Part shown: piece after piece, positions 5,359-28,170 of the stretch
Layout of the letters: each line of letters begins with the position of its first letter
How positions within the stretch are numbered: the stretch's first letter is position 1
Source: Alphaproteobacteria bacterium
Lineage (GTDB): Bacteria; Pseudomonadota; Alphaproteobacteria; SHVV01
Length of the DNA: 64,000 nt
NCBI GenBank assembly: GCA_965261735.1
Contig: OZ253470.1
Span: 640,001-704,000 of the forward strand
Direction of reading: 5' to 3'
Notes under the pieces: model-generated
The model's database searches: none
The model's input: only the letters and a program-made list of their open reading frames with translations
Told to the model about the DNA's origin: nothing
Translations under genes and position numbers: made by a program

Positions 5359-6752
5359 AAGGTGGTGCGGAGCGACGAGACGTCGGCCGTCTACGAGCGC
5401 AAGGTTCAACCGAGGCCGAAGCTGGGACCGTGGATCGGGGAACTGGACCGTCGTCTGGAGGCCAACGAGAAGAAGCCGCGCCGGGATCGTCTGTCGATGA
5501 TGCAGATCTACGAGGATCTGGCGTCGCTGGGCTACGCCGGCGGTTACGACGCGGTGCGCCGCTATGCCGGGGCGTGGCGCCGCCGGCGGCGTAGGCCTAT
5601 ATGCCGCTGAGCTTCGATCCCGGCGAGGCCTACCAGTTCGACTGGAGCCAGGAATACGCGATCCTGTCGGGCACGACGAGCACGGTCAAGGCGGCGCACA
5701 TGCGGCTCTGCTACAGCCGCATGCAGCTGGTTCAGCTCTTCCCGCGCGAGAGCCAGGAGATGGTGTTCGAGGCGCACGAGCGTGCCTTCCGCTTCTTCGG
5801 CGGGGTCTGCCGGCGGGGGCATCTACGACAACATGAAGACGGCGGTGAGCACGGTGTTCGTCGGCAAGGAGCGTGCCTACAACCGCCGCTTCCAGGAGAT
5901 GTGTTCGCACCATCTGGGGGAGCCGGGGGCGTGCACCCCGGTGGCGGCATGGGAGAAGGGCCAGGTCGAGAAGCAAGTGGGTGACGTCCGCGGCCGCCTG
6001 TTCGTGCCCCGGCCGCGGGGCCGCTCCTACGCCGAGTTCAACGCGTGCCTGATGGATTGGTGCATCGAGGATGCCAAGAAGCGGCCGCATCCGACGATCA
6101 AGGGCAAGACGGTGTGGCAGGTGTTCGAGGAAGAACAGCCTTTCCTGATGGCGTATCGAGGGGGCCGTTCGACGGTTTCCATGCGGTCGAGGCGGCGGTC
6201 TCGAAGGCCTTCCTGGTGCGCTTCGACAACAACCAGTACAGCGTCGCGGCGTGCACCGTCGGACGGCCGGTCGACGTGCGGGCCTATGCCGAGAGGATCG
6301 TCATCCGCCAGGACGGCGAGACCGTCGCCGAGCACCCCCGGCGCTTCGCGCGCGGCGAGATCGCCTACGATCCCTCGCACTATGTGCCGATCCTGGCGCG
6401 AAATCCCGGCGCGCTGAGGAACGGCGCGCCCTTCAAGGACTGGCAGCTGCCCGGTGCGCTCGGCCGCATGCGGGCCCGGCTGTCGGACCGCGACGACGGC
6501 GACCGGCAGATCGTCAAGGTGTTCACGGCGGTGCAGGAGGACGGCCTGGAGGCGGTCGAGGCGGCTTGCGCCGAAGCCCTCGCCCATGGCGCCTGCAGCG
6601 CCGATGTCGTGCTCAACATCCTCGCCCGGCAGCGCCAGCCGGCGCCGGCGGCGGCGATCCCGACCCCGGAAGGCCTGCAGCTCCGCCACTTGCCGACGGT
6701 CGACTGCCGCCGCTACGACCGCCTGAGGGAGGCCGACCATGGAGCGTCATGA
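5359..6752 (+). pseudogene. istA: IS21 transposase IstA, several frameshifts
   Basis: FDPGEAYQFDWS, IYDNMKTAV, WEKGQVE and LARNPGALRNGAPF spread over different frames. Confidence 0.9.
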
Positions 6753-7470
6753 AGTGCTGGCGATGATGACCGCGCTGAAGCTCGCAGGCATGCGCGCCGC
6801 CTATGACGACATCCTCGCCGACGGGATCAAGCGCCGTCATCCGGTGCACCGGATCGTCGGCGCACTGCTGCAGGCCGAGATCGCCGACAAGACGGCGCGC
6901 TCGATCAAATACCAGATGATGAGCGACAAGCTGCCGATGGCCAAGGAACTGGCCGACCTCGACTTCTCCGCCTCCCCGGTCAACGAACCCCTGATCCGCA
7001 ACCTGGCGGCCGGCGGATTCCTCGAAGGCAAGCGCAACCTCGTGCTGGTCAGCGGCACCGGCACCGGCAAGACCCATCTCGCCGTCGCCATCATGCGCGC
7101 CTGCATCCGAAACGGCGCCCGCGGCCGCTGCCACAACTTCGTCGAGCTGGTCAACCTCCTCGAGGCCGAACTCCGGTCCGGCCGTCAGGGTCGCACCGCC
7201 GATGTAGCACACCCGGCGCGACTTCTCATCCTGCTCGACGAACTCGGCTACCTGCCCTTCGCCCAGGCCGGCGGCCAGCTGCTGTTCCACCTGATGAGCC
7301 GGCTCTACGAGCGCACCTCGATCATCGTCACCTCCAACCTCGTCTTCGGCGAATGGCCCTCCGTCTTTGGCGACCCCAAGATGACCACGGCGCTGCTCGA
7401 CCGCCTGACCCATCATTGCGAGATCGTCGAAACCGGCAACGAAAGCTGGCGCTTCAAGCACCGCTCGTAA
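6739..7470 (+). CDS. istB: IS21 helper ATPase IstB
   Basis: [40 protein letters not shown]. Confidence 0.92.
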
Positions 7471-7589
7471 TCCGGCGCCGACCGAGCCTGCGGCCCGGTT
7501 GACCCGGTGGGTCAACAGGCACCCCCCCCTGTGGACTACCAGGATAACCTCCATCCAGCCTCCTGAAGGGGTCATCTGTGGACGCCTCC

Positions 7590-7846
7590 GTTGATGCAAG
7601 CATTTCTTTGAACGTCTTGGGGCATGTGGTCAGGTGCGGTCATCTGTCCGGCCTCATGATGCGGCTGGTTTGACGCCGCAGGCCCCTATGGAGATGTGCA
7701 GACCGGGTCCAAGATCAATTTTGCGGGCTTGAAAGCCCCTTGACCCACCGCTGGTTTTCCCGATCCCGTCTCGATTGACCGTTTGCCCTTACTCGTCCTC
7801 CGACCTGCTCACACCCCCGACGTCATTCCGCGAGGCTGCCGCCGTG
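7590..7846 (-). ncRNA. Putative bridge RNA/seekRNA of IS1111 element A
   Basis: ~260-nt non-coding region 3' of the recombinase; scaffold shared with 16377-16628; loop segments match own target and donor junction. Confidence 0.75.
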
Positions 7847-8875
7847 TCAGGCAGCAGCCGGCGCGAAACCTCGGTAGGTCTCCTTGCGTGTCATGAGCGC
7901 CCAGACGATGCGCGCCATCTTGTTGGCCAGCGCCACCGCGACAAGCATTCGCGGCTTGCGCGCCAGCATCCTGGCCAGCCAGGGGTCGTTCGTTTCGCCG
8001 CGACGAACCGCCGAGCTGACGACAGCCATGGCGCCGATGATCAAGAGGCGCCTCAGATCGCGTTGGCCCATCTTCGATATCCTGCCCAGCCGTGGCTTGC
8101 CGCCGGTCGTGTGCTGTCGCGGCACGAGGCCCAGCCAGGCAGAGAAGTCGCGGCCGCGCCGAAAGCTCTCCATCGGCGGCGCGAAGGCCTGAAGCGCCAT
8201 CGCGTTGATCGGCCCGATCCCTGGGATGGTCATGAGCCGTGCCGCCTGCTCGTCCTGACGCGCGCAGGCGCGGAGCTCCTTTTCCAATCCGCCGATCTTC
8301 GCATCGAGGTCAGCGATCTGACCGAGCAGAACGCCACCCAGCGCGCGGACCGCTCCCGGTAGTCCCGAACCCGGATCCTCGAGTGCCGATGCCAGCCGAC
8401 CGACATGAGCCGGTCCCTGCGGCGCGATGACGCCGAACTCTGCCAGGTGGCCACGTAGCGCGTTGATCGTCTGCGTGCGCTGGCGCACCAGAAGATCGCG
8501 CGTGTGGAACAGCATCGCTCTTGCCTGTTGCTCTTCCCCCTTCACCGCCACGAAGCGCATGGTCGGGCGCTGCGCCGCCTCGCAGATCGCCTCCGCGTCC
8601 GCCGCGTCGTTCTTCTGCCGCTTCACGAACGGCTTCACGTAGATCGGTGGGACCAACCTCACTTCGTGGCCGAGCTTCAAAATCTCCCGGCCCCAGTAGT
8701 GGGCGCTCGCACAGGCCTCCATCGCCACCACGCATCGCTGCTGCGCGCCGAGAATGTACAGCAGCCTCTCCCGGCTCACCTTCCTGCGGAACGCGACCGA
8801 ACCGTCCGCCCGAGCACCGTGAAGTTGAAAGCTGCGCTTCGCCAGATCGATCCCGATGATGTTAACCTGTTCCAT
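7847..8875 (-). CDS. IS110-family DEDD recombinase
   Basis: IGIDLAK, VAMEAC, KNDAADAEAI, LMTIPGIG, AWLGLVPRQHTTGGK, ALANKMAR; ATG at 8875 after GGAGG. Confidence 0.95.
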   Translation of the reverse strand: MEQVNIIGIDLAKRSFQLHGARADGSVAFRRKVSRERLLYILGAQQRCVVAMEACASAHYWGREILKLGHEVRLVPPIYVKPFVKRQKNDAADAEAICEAAQRPTMRFVAVKGEEQQARAMLFHTRDLLVRQRTQTINALRGHLAEFGVIAPQGPAHVGRLASALEDPGSGLPGAVRALGGVLLGQIADLDAKIGGLEKELRACARQDEQAARLMTIPGIGPINAMALQAFAPPMESFRRGRDFSAWLGLVPRQHTTGGKPRLGRISKMGQRDLRRLLIIGAMAVVSSAVRRGETNDPWLARMLARKPRMLVAVALANKMARIVWALMTRKETYRGFAPAAA

Positions 8876-8963
8876 GGACGCCTCCTCCTCCGGGGGTTGG
8901 TCACGCCACCACCTTGGCACACTGCGATGCCGTCGGGAGGAGGCGTCCACTCCATCAATTTTG

Positions 8964-9146
8964 GGGTCTGTCGCCGTCTCGATGATGTCAGCGGTTTATG
9001 GACGCCAGATGCCGGCGAACGGAGGCCAGATCGACAATCTGAGGGCCTTCCAGCGCCAGACTTTTGGGATGTGCCGATCTGGATGTGCTCAGAATCCGCC
9101 TCGTCGTGCTGTCCGAAGCCACCATCATCGAGATTGAGTCAGACCC
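8964..9146 (+). mobile_element. 183-bp MITE, internally deleted ISL3-like derivative
   Basis: 24-bp imperfect IR GGGTCTG-N6-TCTCGATGATG at both ends; flanking duplication AATTTTG (8957-8963, 9147-9153); interior resembles an ISL3 transposase C-terminus (GQIDNLRAFQRQTFG). Confidence 0.7.
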
Positions 9147-9167
9147 AATTTTGAACGCTGATTGACA

Positions 9168-9742
9168 CCCTCGCACCCGCGCATCAGGTCCTCTCGCGCG
9201 AAGCCATTGTCGCCGCGCAGCAGGATGTCGACGTTGGGCCATCGTTCGCCGATCATCCGGACGATGCGGCGGATCTGGTTGCGCGCGCCCCTGGCGCCCT
9301 CGATGTTGGCGGGTCGGAGCTGGGCGAGCAGGAGATGGCGGCCGCAGAAGACGTAGAGCGGCAGGAAGCAGCGGTGTTCGTAATAGCCGTGGAAGAAGGC
9401 GTTCTCCTGGCGCCCATGGGTCTCCACGTCGGTGGCGTCGACATCGAGGGTGATGCGCGCGGGCGGCGTCTGGTGGGCGTCGAGAAACAGGGTGCCGAAC
9501 AGGTTGGAGAGTTTCTTGAGGTTGGCAGAGATCTGATGGTACCGGCGATCGCCGGTGTCCCAGGCGTGCTCGATGCGGTTCAGCGTCGATTTGCCGGCCA
9601 ACGCCGGCGGGCCTTTACCGGTGGCCGGCGTCGGCTCGCCGCCGCAATCGGCGAGGAGCTTGCACGCCGGATCGTGGCGCAAGGCGTCGTGATCGTTGAT
9701 GTTTTCATAGCCCAGGGCGATGCCCGCGACCCGCTGGGCCTT
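9168..9742 (-). pseudogene. IS1380-family transposase internal fragment
   Basis: GYENINDHDALRHDP, LAGKSTLNR, ITLDVDATD, GYYEHRCFLPL, LLRGDNGF. Confidence 0.9.
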
Positions 9743-16137: not shown

Positions 16138-16376
16138 GTATAAACACTGAGGGTCGCCTCCTTGCAGCGTTTCACAGATCAGCCCACCGAACTCGCCCTG
16201 CCGCTCTACGGCTCCAGGGTACCCGCCGGATGTATCTGTTCGGCGAAGCTGTGGAATCGGCCGGCCCGCGGGAGAAGTGGGCGATCACAGCCGCCTCGTT
16301 TGTTGAAACAGCGCTCATTCCCTGCCTCCCCCCATTCGGACGTCCACGGTTTGAACGAACGTGTGTGGACGCCCCC

Positions 16377-16628
16377 GTTGATGCAAGCAGTTTTTGGTCG
16401 GCTCGGTGCATGCGGTCAGGTGCTGTCGTGTGTCCGGCCTCTCTATGCGGCAGATGACACGCCGCGGGCCCGTATGGAGATACGCGGATTGGGTCCAAAT
16501 CGGTTACGCGAGCTTGAAAGCTCTCCGTTCGGATGCTGGTTTTCCCAACCCGGTCTCGTTGACCTTTGCCCTTACCTGTCCTCCGTCCTGCCCACATCCC
16601 CGACGGCTTCCCGCACTTCGCCGTTCTC
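16377..16628 (-). ncRNA. Putative bridge RNA/seekRNA of IS1111 element B
   Basis: Same scaffold as 7590-7846 with a compensatory stem change (GGGC/GCCC vs GAGC/GCTC) and different guide segments. Confidence 0.75.
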
Positions 16629-17651
16629 TCAGGCGGTGGCGGGAGCCCGGTAGCTCTCCTTCTTCGTCAGTAGCGCCCAGACGATGCGCGCCATCCTGTT
16701 GGCCAGCGCCACCGCGACGAGCATCCTCGGCTTGCGCGCCAGCATCCCGGCCAGCCAGGGGTCCGTCGTCACGCCGCGCCGAACCGCCCAGCGGACCACA
16801 GTCATCGCGCCTGTGATCAGCAGCCGTCTCAGATCGCGCTGGCCCATCTTCGATATCTTGCCCAGCTTCGGCTTGCCGCCGGTCGTGTGCTGACGCGGCA
16901 CGAGGCCGAGCCAAGCGGAGAAGTCGCGGCCGCGCCGGAAACTCTCCATCGGCGGTGCGAAGGCCTGGATTGCCATCGCGCTGATCGGCCCGATCCCCGG
17001 CACGCTCATCAGGCGCCTCGCCTCCTCATCCTGCCGTGCTCTCACGTGGACCTCCCTCTCCAGGCCCGCAATCTTCGCATCGAGGCCGGCGATCTGCTCA
17101 AGCAGAAGGCCGGCCAGCTCGCGGACCGCTTCCGGCAACCTCGAAGCCGGTCCCCCAAGCGCCGAGGCCAGCCGGCCGACATGAGCCGGCCCCTGCGGGG
17201 CAATGACACCGAACTCCGCCAGATGGCCGCGCAGCGCATTAATCGTCTGGGTGCGCTGGCGCACCAGAAGATCGCGCGTCCGGAACAGCATGCCCCGAGC
17301 CTGCTGTTCCTCCGTCTTCACAGCCACAAAGCGCATGGTCGGCCGCGACGACGCCTCGCAGATCGCCTCCGCATCCGACGCGTCGTTCTTTTGCCGCTTG
17401 ACGTACGCTTTGACGTAGATCGGTGGGACCAGTCGCACCGCATGGCCGAGACTGCCGATCTCCCGGCCCCAATGGTGCGCGCCGCCGCACGCCTCCATCG
17501 CCACCGTGCAGCGTGGCTGCGCAGCCACAAAGTCCAACAGCTTCGCCCGGCTCAGCTTCTTGCGGAACGCAACCGACCCATCCGCCCGCGCACCGTGCAG
17601 CTGAAAGCTGTTCTTCGCCAGATCGATCCCGATCATGTGAACCTGTTCCAT
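16629..17651 (-). CDS. IS110-family DEDD recombinase
   Basis: IGIDLAK, AMEAC, KNDASDAEAI, VPGIG, AWLGLVP; close paralogue of 7847-8875. Confidence 0.95.
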   Translation of the reverse strand: MEQVHMIGIDLAKNSFQLHGARADGSVAFRKKLSRAKLLDFVAAQPRCTVAMEACGGAHHWGREIGSLGHAVRLVPPIYVKAYVKRQKNDASDAEAICEASSRPTMRFVAVKTEEQQARGMLFRTRDLLVRQRTQTINALRGHLAEFGVIAPQGPAHVGRLASALGGPASRLPEAVRELAGLLLEQIAGLDAKIAGLEREVHVRARQDEEARRLMSVPGIGPISAMAIQAFAPPMESFRRGRDFSAWLGLVPRQHTTGGKPKLGKISKMGQRDLRRLLITGAMTVVRWAVRRGVTTDPWLAGMLARKPRMLVAVALANRMARIVWALLTKKESYRAPATA

Positions 17652-17819
17652 GGACGCCCCCTTCCTCGCTTGGCGTTAACAACACCGCCAACCTGGCACA
17701 TCGCGATGCCGTCGGGAGGGGCGTCCACCCCATCGGTTGCCGCCGGATTTCCAAGCCCCGCCGACGACCATATCGAGGGCAAGCTTGATCTCAATCTGCA
17801 TCTGATCCGCCCGCGCCAC

Positions 17820-26160: not shown

Positions 26161-28170
26161 TGTCAATCGGCGTGCAAAATCGACCCCATCTGAGCGGCAC
26201 GGCGGAAGTTGTCCCGGTAGCCAATAGGGGGGACGCACGTGGCTTCGTGTCGCGCCTTGCGCTAAGAGTCGGTTTCGAAAGTCATGGGGCTCGGGCCAAT
26301 TTGCGGACGAGGAGCATGACGGAGGCAGCGTAGAGGAAGGCGCGGGCCGAGGCGATGGTGGCCTCGAAATCCTTTGCCAGTCGCCGGTTGCGGTTGATCC
26401 AGGCGAAGAAGCGCTCCACGATCCAGCGGCGCGGTTGGACGGCGAAGCCGACCTGATCGGGGCTTTTGCGCACGATCTCGACGGCGATCACGGTGGCCGT
26501 GGCGACCTTCTCGCCGGCGTAGCCGCTGTCGGCAAAGACCTTCTCGATGAACGGAAACGAGCCGCGTGAGGCGCACAGCAGCGGCCCGCCACCATCGCGG
26601 TTCTGGATACTCGCCGGATGCGCCTCGAGCACGAGGCCGCGCCCGTCGGTGTCGACCAGCGCGTGGCGCTTGCGCCCCTTGATCTTCTTGCCCGCATCGT
26701 AGCCGCGGGGGCCACCAGCCTCGGTCGTCTTGACGCTCTGGCTGTCGATAATCGTGCCGCTCGGGCTGGCCTCGCGTCCGACCCGCTCGCGATCGGCCAT
26801 GACCAGAGAGTGATTGATCTTCTCAAGGAGGCCGTCGTCGCGGAACTTGGCGAACCAGCGATAGATCGTGCCCCACGGTGGCAAATCGCTTGGCAGCAAG
26901 CGCCAAGGGCAGCCAGCCCGCATCACGTAGAAAATGCCGTTGACGATCTCTCGCATCGGCCATGACCGGGGCCGTCCCGTGCCATGAGCCGGAGGCAAAT
27001 GAGGCTCGATCACAACCCACTCCGCATCGGTCAAATCAGTCTGATAACGCAGCGCCTTGCGGCTATGCTGCTCTCGGGTGGTCGGCGTCCACATGGCGGC
27101 TCCAAATCGGTCTCAACAACCTTCCTGGAATCACATCGACACCGGCCACTCAACCCCTTTCGAAACGGCCTCTAACGCGGAGCGAAGCCGCGTGGGGGGT
27201 TCTCTGTTGATTCACTGCGGCACCCGGGGCGCAGGCACGGCCGGCGTCCGGTCAGGAGCGGTTCTTGAAGCGCCAGCTTTCGTTGCCGGTCTCGATGATC
27301 TCGCAATGATGGGTGAGGCGATCGAGTACCGCCGTGGTCATCTTGGGGTCGCCGAAGACGGAGGGCCATTCGCCGAAGGCGAGGTTGGTGGTGATGACGA
27401 TCGAGGTGCGCTCGTAGAGCCGGCTCATGAGGTGGAACAGGAGCTGCCCGCCGGCCTGGGCGAAGGGCAGATAGCCAAGTTCGTCGAGGATGACGAAGTC
27501 GCGTCGGATGAGCTGGTCTGCGGTGCGGCCCTGGCGTTCGGCACGGAGTTCGGCCTCGAGATGGTTGACCAGGTCGACGACGTTGTAGAAGCGGCCGCGT
27601 GCGGCCTTGCGGATGCAGGGCGCCGGCCCCAGGGCAGCGTGAACGTACCGAAGTCCACCTGGCCCTGACGCCCCGCCGGCGTCTCGAACCGGACCAGCGA
27701 TTCAACCGGTTCGCGCGGTCGCGTCGCCCGCACGTAGTCGTTCACGCGAGAGTAGCAGCCCGGGTAGTCCGCAGCGCGGACCTCATCGAAAAGCCGCTTC
27801 GCCGACAGCTTCGGGAACGCCTCAAGACGGGCGTCGATGATCGCCTTGTAGGGGTCCAGCTTGTGGGCCACAGGCGGACGGGGCGAATACCCTCGCGCAC
27901 CGGCCGCCAGATCCCGGTCCAGTTGGCCGGTATCGACCCAATTGTGGATCGTCCGACGGTTCACCCCGAACCGCCTCGACAGCTCCGCCTTCGAGACACC
28001 CCGGTCCAGATAGTGCTTCAACAACATCCTGGTCTCCCATTTGTACATCCGCGCACCGATCCCGCTCTGTTGGCAAAGCCAACAGAGCGGCCCGGGACGC
28101 CTTCAGCGACAAGCCCAAAGTGAGAAATTTTGGGTCGTTACAAATGGGAAATTTACGGTCGCTACCAACA
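26161..28170 (-). mobile_element. Internally deleted or chimeric IS21-family element (istA 5' part 27625-28048, istB 3' part 27251-27620)
   Basis: Ends TGTCAATCGGCGTGCAAAATCGACCCC and ...GGTCGCTACCAACA; [21 protein letters not shown]; ist[10 protein letters not shown]...GNESWRFK. Confidence 0.8.
26266..27172 (-). mobile_element. IS5-family (IS1031-like) element with intact transposase 26282-27094
   Basis: IR GAG.C.GTTTCGAAA; TAA duplication; YQTDLTDAEW, IDSQSVKT, DSGY, RWIVERFFAW. Confidence 0.93.

Follow-up and report, generated by a model that had tools for sequence, protein, structure and literature searches.

An IS1111-group insertion sequence with a probable bridge RNA aimed at the end repeats of IS21-family elements

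The window analysed here is a 64,000-nucleotide (nt) stretch of the genome of an Alphaproteobacteria bacterium (assembly GCA_965261735.1, contig OZ253470.1, positions 640,001 to 704,000, forward strand). Near its start lies element A, a complete insertion sequence of the IS1111 group (IS110 family), which occupies positions 7575-8957 (1383 base pairs (bp), minus strand) as read from its sequence and the IS1111 end rule, and which splits the right end of an IS21-family element. An initial annotation had proposed that the non-coding region of this insertion sequence encodes a guide RNA programmed against IS21 terminal repeats. The features of the locus, including the subterminal inverted repeats (sTIRs) of element A, are as follows.

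5359..7574, plus strand: host IS21-family element, with istA fragmentary and istB (6739-7470) intact; no alignment over the left 222 bp, which take in the left end (PF01695; Mu-transpos_C_2 on a fragment)
7568..7574, plus strand: left target half GGGGTCA, the inner part of IS21 right-end repeat R1
7575..8957, minus strand: element A, a complete IS1111-group insertion sequence with both ends read; one copy in its own genome; 95.8% identical to 12 near-identical copies in genome G002
7578..7589, minus strand: right sTIR GGAGGCGTCCAC, followed by the 3-bp extension AGA at 7575-7577
7847..8875, minus strand: transposase gene, 342 amino acids (aa); the N-terminal domain is DEDD/RuvC-like, and the GL-P----TG motif (WLGLVPRQHTTGG) lies in the C-terminal domain (PF01548, PF02371, NF033542)
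8939..8950, minus strand: left sTIR GTGGACGCCTCC (element orientation), preceded by the 7-bp extension TGATGGA at 8951-8957
8958..8963, plus strand: right target half ATTTTG, the outer part of IS21 repeat R1, duplicated at 9148-9153 by insertion of a miniature element
9147..9167, plus strand: distal 21 bp of the IS21 right end (AATTTTGAACGCTGATTGACA), up to and including the terminal CA, and matching the tips TGTCAATCGGCGT.CAAAAT.GACCCC of other IS21 copies

In its own orientation, element A begins and ends as TGATGGA-GTGGACGCCTCC ... GGAGGCGTCCAC-AGA, with a perfect sTIR in which 12/12 bases are complementary. This arrangement follows the end rule that the accessible portion of PMC11187229 gives for IS1111 elements (7 bp, a 12-bp sTIR, the body, the sTIR and 3 bp), the group being characterized by an sTIR of 11-13 bp with asymmetric extensions of 7 bp on the left and 3 bp on the right. 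On the plus strand the junctions read GGGGTC|ATCTGT (7568-7579) and CTCCATC|AATTTTG (8950-8963). They share only TCA, which leaves the crossover point ambiguous by 3 nt, and the insertion is site- and orientation-specific without target duplication, as is typical of IS1111 elements; the core dinucleotide is CA on the plus strand and TG in element orientation. The span first assigned to the element, 7568-8963, does contain it, but at its start and end also takes in the target half-sites GGGGTC (7568-7573) and AATTTTG (8957-8963).

The transposase, at 342 aa, falls inside the 330-350 aa that the literature gives for the group. It matches PF01548 (7.5e-16), PF02371 (2.8e-22) and the NCBIfam family NF033542, 'IS110 family RNA-guided transposase' (324 bits against a cut-off of 140), aligns to the solved transposase chains of ISCro4 and IS621 (the latter being 8wt6), and carries the IS1111 motif GL-P----S/T-G as GLVPRQHTTG. 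As in other IS1111 elements, the transposase gene is followed by a longer non-coding region (272 nt, 7575-7846) than the one upstream of it (82 nt, 8876-8957). Ends, sTIR, transposase families and downstream non-coding region together confirm the identification as an IS1111 element with which the annotation began. Element A looks intact, its activity in this genome being unproven. It is 95.8% identical to the copies in G002, a genome of a different genus in the same family, with identical guides. Among plasmids searched by megablast, nothing covered at least 80% of element A (best match 38% coverage, 75% identity), and no named relative was obtained from that collection.

The host element has the order that defines the IS21 family, istA (integrase core and Mu-transposase C-terminal domain) and then the ATPase gene istB. 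Its istB matches PF01695 (4e-66) and ends at 7470; its istA survives as fragments only, with PF22483, where an intact 2544-bp IS21 in G002 carries rve and PF22483. Compared with that intact element, the window copy aligns to positions 223-2399 only, at 86% identity and with 26 gaps. Beyond element A the tip, ...GATTGACA, ends at 9167, within a fragment of another transposase gene (PF13701). With element A and the miniature element both removed, the right end reads GGGGTCAATTTTGAACGCTGATTGACA and element A sits 20 bp from the tip; this copy shows R1 only, no R2-like repeat being seen in it. The earlier placement of the target in an IS21 right end is upheld by the istB upstream and by the resumption of the end as far as the tip at 9167.

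The miniature element itself (183 bp, 8964-9146) stands between element A and the IS21 tip and has 24-nt imperfect terminal inverted repeats (GGGTCTGTCGC...). It is flanked by a 7-bp duplication, AATTTTG at 8957-8963 and 9147-9153, in the same IS21 repeat and 7 bp from element A, and its first 161 bp (8964-9124) recur at five other places in the genome, in each case after an A/T-rich heptamer and beside a different neighbour. The duplication was considered as a means of ordering the two insertions, and it fits both orders.

The 3' non-coding region of element A holds the segments on which its interpretation turns. Read from the minus strand, they form the following parts of a putative bridge RNA, a term we use as equivalent to seekRNA.

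7628..7780, minus strand: conserved bridge/seek RNA fold, minimum extent (RNAalifold, 36 sequences)
7776-7780 with 7628-7632, minus strand: helix P0, which closes the multiloop (RNAalifold consensus)
7759-7766 with 7700-7707, minus strand: helix P1, 8 bp (RNAalifold consensus)
7752-7754 with 7709-7711, minus strand: helix P2, 3 bp (RNAalifold consensus)
7739..7750, minus strand: 5' target guide CGGUGGGUCAAG; GGGUCAA (7740-7746) is complementary to TTGACCC, found on the top strand in the right target half (element orientation)
7725..7738, minus strand: hairpin P3 (GGGC-UUUCAA-GCCC), dividing the two target guides (covariation)
7713..7724, minus strand: 3' target guide GCAAAAUUGAUC; CAAAAUUGA (7715-7723) is identical to the left target half, top strand, together with the core
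7687..7695, minus strand: donor guide 1 (AUCUCCAUA), in a multiloop junction; CUCCAU is complementary to the left-end ATGGAG
7650..7684, minus strand: hairpin P4/P5 (GGCC...GGCC around GCGGC...GCCGC), between the donor guides
7638..7649, minus strand: donor guide 2 (GGACAGAUGACC); ACAGAUGA equals the right end, the core and the first left-end base, that is, the circle junction

On the plus strand, the target motifs TCAATTTTG (7715-7723) and TTGACCC (7740-7746), the hairpin GGGC-TTGAAA-GCCC (7725-7738) and the donor motifs TCATCTGT (7640-7647) and ATGGAG (7688-7693) all lie exactly where they had first been placed. P1 and P2 lead into an internal loop whose sides are the two target guides, with P3 between them, and the donor segments occupy multiloop junctions on either side of P4/P5. 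Contiguous pairing with the target extends over 7 nt (GGGTCAA) and 9 nt (CAAAATTGA). As in seekRNAs, the two target segments match opposite strands and overlap at the core, the top-strand match coming first. The AU that follows the core in the 3' target guide is also how the left end begins, which gives the guide a 10-nt match to the product junction, an arrangement we infer to be handshake-like. The predicted circle junction of element A reads ...CCACAGA-TG-ATGGAGTGG.

An alignment of 36 distinct non-coding regions (A2), folded with RNAalifold, gave a consensus of 29 pairs in which 98.5% of cells are paired and 12/29 pairs show compensatory change. None of 500 shuffles reached the observed value on four of five measures, and slid controls gave 23-47% pairing. 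The middle pair of P3 (columns 77/89 of A2) occurs in all four Watson-Crick forms, GC, CG, AU and UA, with both sides changed in 22 sequences. A conserved secondary structure thus sets the guides in loops, which is a further hallmark of seekRNAs.

Three further observations concern this region. The initial annotation had also read an extended guide, GGTGGGTC, and this did not hold: real targets read AAGGGGTC, GGGGGGTC or TGGGGGTC, with no match to it. The extension was considered as a guide for a second target and set aside, its 11-nt match, CGGTGGGTCAA, falling in an internal IS21 palindrome (7505-7515) where the other half-site is unmatched. That palindrome, GTTGACCC-GG-TGGGTCAAC, lies at 7497-7516 directly after istB, and similar ones follow istB in other IS21 copies of the genome; 11 of its bases are identical to the 5' guide of element A, and the adjoining bases differ from the 3' guide. 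Lastly, GCTTGCAT, near the right end (7594-7599; A2 columns 231-238), is kept in almost all relatives and stands 17 nt ahead of a GATGAT that would arise at the circle junction; that it might serve as the -35 box of a junction promoter is a guess from its sequence and position.

The sister elements within the same genome show what the guides follow. Element A is present once, element B in four copies (86% identical) and element C in 14 full-length copies (80% identical), one of them in the window. The scaffold is shared among the three; the differences concentrate in the guide segments, each of which matches its own flanks. Insertion sites and guides, in element orientation, are:

Element A: site CCCCAAAAT|TG|ACCCC; 5' guide CGGTGGGTCAAG; 3' guide GCAAAATTGATC
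Element B: site GCGCAAAAA|TG|TACCACG; 5' guide TCGTGGTACACG; 3' guide GCAAAAATGATC
Element C: site GYAAC|CG|TTCGAT (consensus, many unrelated loci); 5' guide CATCCGAACGGA; 3' guide GCGTAACCGAT

In each case the core and right flank appear, reverse-complemented, as the 5' guide, and the left flank and core appear unchanged as the 3' guide, the matched flanks being CAAAAT|TGACCC in A, GCAAAAA|TGTACCACG in B and GYAAC|CGTTCG in C. Donor guide 2 follows the right end and core of the element itself, again as in seekRNAs: it reads ACAGATGA in A and B, whose right end is CACAGA|TG, and ACACACGA in C, whose right end is CACACA|CG. Across the relatives in A2 its forms ACAGATGA, ACACACGA, ACATACGA and ATAGACGA go with the ends CACAGA|TG, CACACA|CG, CACATA|CG and CATAGA|CG. 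The copy of C in the window (16362-17735, 1374 bp) has guides GUAACCG and CGAACGG that match its consensus site, and no exact unoccupied C site, GTAACCGTTCG, is left in the genome.

The same covariation of guide and flank extends across genomes, in a set of 80 related loci with transposases 62-96% identical, drawn from Alphaproteobacteria, Binatia, Longimicrobiales, Vicinamibacterales and others. Where both ends could be placed by motif, the first two element bases equalled the first two right-flank bases in 37/43 loci. Over 33 distinct combinations of element and site, the summed longest exact matches of guides to flanks had a mean of 13.2 and a minimum of 10. Guides cross-paired with the flanks of other elements gave a mean of 7.85, a 95th percentile of 10.4 and a maximum of 17, the last because this null includes related elements with similar targets.

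These results bear on the simplest alternative, that the matches are coincidental and that the transposase protein alone recognises the target. Each match is indeed short (6-9 nt), and among 5000 dinucleotide shuffles of the 237-nt non-coding region of element A both donor matches (8 + 6 nt) arose in 93 and both target matches (9 + 7 nt) in 9. All four matches together arose in none of them, however, the matches fall in fixed alignment columns and follow the flanks in the 33 combinations, and published experiments on the family show a requirement for RNA (accessible portions of PMC11187229 and PMC11208160). We consider coincidence with recognition by protein alone to be extremely improbable. 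The bispecific RNA with target and donor loops that was proposed at the outset instead gains from both lines of evidence, the covariation of guide with flank and the conserved fold with its compensatory changes.

Metagenome-assembled genomes that carry the labels of several phyla (Binatia, Gemmatimonadota orders, Acidobacteriota orders, Chloroflexota) encode transposases 74-82% identical, and several sequencing runs with the element are labelled sponge metagenome. The distribution over several phyla together with the sponge labels suggests horizontal spread within one habitat.

The copies of element A in other genomes bear on the nature of its target. The scaffold found 14 copies in G002 with exactly the guides of element A and one with a single 3'-guide mismatch (CAAUAUUGA, here called the A' type). 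All 12 of the 12 copies examined there are flanked by IS21-type end repeats: three stand in R1 of the right end, 20 bp from the TGTCAATCGG tip, and nine in the inner repeat L2 of the left end, directly upstream of istA. Every one of the 12 occupies the same position within the repeat, with its transposase gene pointing inward from the IS21 tip. A check that flanks of further copies be IS21 ends, suggested with the first description of the guide, is thereby answered for the copies examined, and together with the covariation of guide and flank they support the view that the guide is programmed against IS21 terminal repeats. An order-level pattern search returned the same 8 genomes as the family-level search and added only two variants with 2 mismatches.

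The intact IS21 of G002 shows why the two positions are equivalent. Its terminal inverted repeats end in CA, and each end is made of two direct repeats of about 24 bp, as is characteristic of the family, of types ...CGGCGTCCAAAATTGACCCCC and ...CGGCGTGCAATATTGACCCCC. The right end reads TGTCAATCGGCGTCCAAAATTGACCCCC and then AATCGGCGTGCAATATTGACCCCCC, and the left end has the same two types in reverse order, so that the AAAAT type is outermost on the right (R1) and innermost on the left (L2). In the accessible portion of PMC10122671, IS21 ends are described as the direct repeats L1/L2 and R1/R2, and integration by IstA as needing two complete repeats. G002 holds 60 unoccupied exact target 13-mers against none for a reversed control, many of them paired on opposite strands about 2.47 kb apart.

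Further copies and guide variants keep to IS21-type repeats as well. A 96%-identical copy in a further genome (L158) occupies the site TGTCAAACGGCTTTCAATAT|TGACCCCC, with one guide mismatch, 20 bp from a TGTCAA tip. The A' guide CAAUAUUGA reads as a match to the neighbouring repeat of the same IS21 end, AATAT|TGACCCC, and in genome G004 the A' variant (3' guide CAATATTGA) has the right flank TGACCCCCTATTGGGGG, which is the other repeat type of the IS21 end. In 4/4 copies sister B stands at AAAAA|TGTACC, 44 bp from a TTGACA tip, and there splits the inner repeat of another IS21 species; a related uninterrupted end, an empty site, follows an istB fragment at genome position ~2,249,700. Across IS21 species the guides of A (AAAAT|TGACCCC), A' (AATAT|TGACCCC) and B (AAAAA|TGTACCAC) thus appear to address one position within the repeat. 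The hosts of B1, B3 and B4 (G000 C1 4347336, 3421879 and 439460) are right-end remnants of IS21 that keep 58-77 bp of the inner side, with different cut points; in the B3 host an internal deletion joins istA sequence to the end, and istB lies upstream in B2 only.

The copies in G002 also indicate how they arrived. Among the 12 elements, differences from one another average 0.5 over 1383 positions (maximum 3). Beside the nine L2 copies, the adjoining 1200 bp of the IS21 hosts show an average of 52 differences, with a range of 0-45 without L058 and up to 184 with it; three of these hosts (L031, L040, L054) differ by 0-1 bases and could be duplicates. Near-identical elements in diverged hosts imply that element A entered IS21 copies that had already diverged, recently and repeatedly, which supports independent, active and site-specific insertion, not the copying of cargo by IS21. 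Had IS21 and element A instead been copied together by IstA and IstB, the flanks would be uninformative about target choice. The common left-end context of the nine copies and the near-identity of the L031, L040 and L054 hosts would suit such joint copying, but it predicts either equal divergence of element and host or a lack of empty sites, and both predictions were tested and failed: host flanks differ by up to 45/1200 (184 for L058) beside elements that hardly differ, and uninterrupted sites exist. The same element is also found in right ends (3 copies) and in other genomes, and the guides match the flanks. Joint copying is in our judgement very unlikely.

Taken together, our findings point to the following mechanism. 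The 3' non-coding region of element A would encode a bridge RNA in which two guide segments around a small hairpin each pair with a different strand of the target, CAAAAT-TG-ACCC(C), 13-16 bp long, and two further segments, in the multiloop, pair with the joined ends of the element itself. The DEDD transposase and the RNA would then recombine the excised circle into the target at the shared core TG, without duplication. The target is one of the two direct repeats in each IS21 terminal inverted repeat, the recognition units of IstA, so that each IS21 copy of the right type offers a landing site at the outer R1 on the right and the inner L2 on the left. We conclude that element A is very probably an intact IS1111 element with a bridge RNA aimed at IS21-family end repeats. 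The anatomy, the conserved fold, the covariation of guide and flank, the location of the examined copies in IS21 repeats and the independence of their insertion are shown by the sequence comparisons.

Several points weigh against this conclusion. For an RNA that is produced, held by the transposase and able to direct recombination, we rely on the published mechanism of the family. No Rfam family matched positions 7000-9500 at E up to 1, which leaves no curated model for comparison, no sigma-70-like promoter was found in a scan of 7400-9200, and the single-sequence fold (z = -1.58) is not significantly more stable than shuffles. Contigs from RNA libraries, discussed below, carry no strand, ends or level and may include DNA, and so cannot show transcription. 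The match of donor guide 1 is short (6 nt), barely varies among A, B and C, and needs a G-U pair in C. The flank count took in 12 of the 15 copies in G002, with 3 left out, and left out the left flanks in G004. Element A finds no perfect unoccupied target in its own genome, and the host IS21 in the window is already degenerate, so that nothing is being immobilised at this locus now.

Other observations sit alongside these. The single-sequence minimum-energy structure departs from the alignment consensus in its donor part, and a terminator scan of 7400-9200 gave two terminator-like matches, which is chance level. The genome of element A holds six sites with one mismatch, four of them in IS21-type tips, and the lack of a perfect free target fits the single copy of A. 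A second related IS21 right end lies unoccupied on the minus strand at 26161-26187, accompanied by a fragment of istB (~27194-27623); in the repeat of this end, CAAAATCGACCCC, the core is CG where element A requires TG, which may explain the absence of element A there. Elsewhere (G000 C1 1929334-1929687) two inverted IS21-type tips (TGTTGTTAAGCGTGGAAAATTGACCCCC, TGTCAAACGGCTTTCAATATTGACCCCC) stand about 340 bp apart and look like an IS21-derived miniature element; one of them carries a near-perfect, unoccupied A target.

The RNA-library contigs, X7 and X10 from one study and X17 from another, cover most of element A, including the non-coding region. No joint of a circle junction was seen in the contigs read. 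A 'goes back 38' joint in X10 was considered as one and rejected, 30 foreign letters lying between its sides, a layout that fits a relative. The loose ends at 7568 (X10) and 8963 (X7), seen in one contig each, resemble IS21 repeat sequence and in this agree with IS21 targeting.

What element A does to IS21 is a separate question. Insertion splits a repeat that IstA recognises, and both repeats are needed, which makes a cost to IS21 hard to avoid; that the split end is disabled we infer only from this split and the two-repeat requirement, and immobilisation of IS21 by element A is plausible on that basis. The IS21 end repeats might equally be a harmless, multi-copy, travelling safe site, with inactivation of IS21 a by-product and not selected, an account that contests the immobilising effect alone and leaves the targeting as it is. 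Most IS21 sites in G002 are empty (60 exact free sites against 15 occupied), other members of the clade insert at many different repeats that are unrelated, and the host in the window is dead for other reasons too. Against a harmless site stand the splitting of a repeat of which both copies are required and the adherence of all three guide variants (A, A' and B) to IS21-type repeats. We find the case for this account evenly balanced.

Element A may belong to a wider pattern of insertion into insertion sequences. Element F, an IS1111 relative (L083:1456-1895; G004:C4, ~1,630,400), has inserted at GGGCAAA|CG|GTCAATCG (GGGCAAA|CG|GTCAA) in an A-type copy, within its non-coding region and hence its seekRNA gene. 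The site is matched by the guides of F, GCAAACG and the reverse complement of CGGTCAA; one instance was seen. Most of the 36 aligned relatives keep this target sequence, but the versions of it carried by F and C themselves are short of one base of the CG core, a loss that could protect F from itself. Further relatives (L114, L133, L132) stand in the right sTIR of sibling IS1111 elements (GCATCACCGGGGG|CG|TCCATAGA, twice in one genome) or in the donor-guide region (CACGTATCTCCATACGGGCC). Such entry of one insertion sequence into another seems to be frequent in the clade. It is tempting to speculate that these are RNA-guided IS1111 elements specialised as parasites of other transposons, some of them directed at conserved stretches of their own siblings, with reprogrammable guides adding a layer to an arms race, an idea we advance tentatively and with some doubt. 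If true, IS21 ends would on balance be disabled, from which the host might benefit.

This system is of value mainly for its series of reprogrammed guides and for the way in which insertion sequences parasitise one another in layers. One genome contains three guide pairs on near-identical scaffolds, each pair matching its own sites, and so shows guide reprogramming cleanly in nature; the elements A, A', B and C form matched sets of scaffold, guide and target for the study of RNA-guided recombinases. They also raise the idea that such IS1111 elements limit the spread of IS21.

Comparison with known systems places element A among RNA-guided elements of the IS110 family. Like the seekRNA-bearing IS1111 elements ISEc11, ISKpn4, ISPa11 and ISPst6 (Siddiquee et al. 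2024, PMC11187229), as far as the accessible text describes them, it has its non-coding region downstream of the transposase gene and shows reprogramming between close relatives, and its two short target matches, on opposite strands, likewise share bases of the target and come in the same order, top strand 5' of bottom strand. The targets and scaffold sequence differ, and element A is known from sequence alone; the accessible portion of that report makes no mention of IS21. With the IS621 bridge RNA, in the accessible accounts of Durrant et al. 2024 (PMC11208160) and Hiraizumi et al. 2024 (PMC11208158), it shares a bispecific RNA in which the target loop is 5' of the donor loop. The RNA of IS621 lies in the left end and holds its donor guides in a simple internal loop, whereas that of element A lies in the right end with donor guides in a multiloop, as many IS1111 orthologues hold their donor-binding nucleotides (PMC11208160, same portion). 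ISPpu9 of Pseudomonas putida (PMC12288879, accessible portion) is also of the IS110 family, with a small RNA gene downstream of its transposase gene and a repeated-sequence target, but it targets REP sequences and not another transposon. A shared core dinucleotide and a DEDD recombinase also link element A to IS621, the protein aligning to 8wt6. The catalytic-site Ser position reads Thr-Gly in element A, a position we take to be the catalytic serine of IS621.

A full-text literature search found no report of an IS110 or IS1111 element aimed at IS21 ends; ISfinder and supplementary target tables lay outside that search, and the element may already be catalogued there. To our knowledge, Tn21-type terminal repeats are the known example so far of mobile-element sequences to which IS1111 elements home. 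The closest parallel is with IS4321 and IS5075, reportedly directed at the terminal repeats of the Tn21 family. They too belong to the IS1111 group, have an sTIR and insert at a fixed position and in a fixed orientation inside the terminal repeat of another transposon; there the target is the 38-bp repeat of Tn3/Tn21-type transposons, whereas here it is the paired direct repeats of IS21 ends. Element A adds IS21-family end repeats to the short list of mobile-element targets of IS1111 elements.

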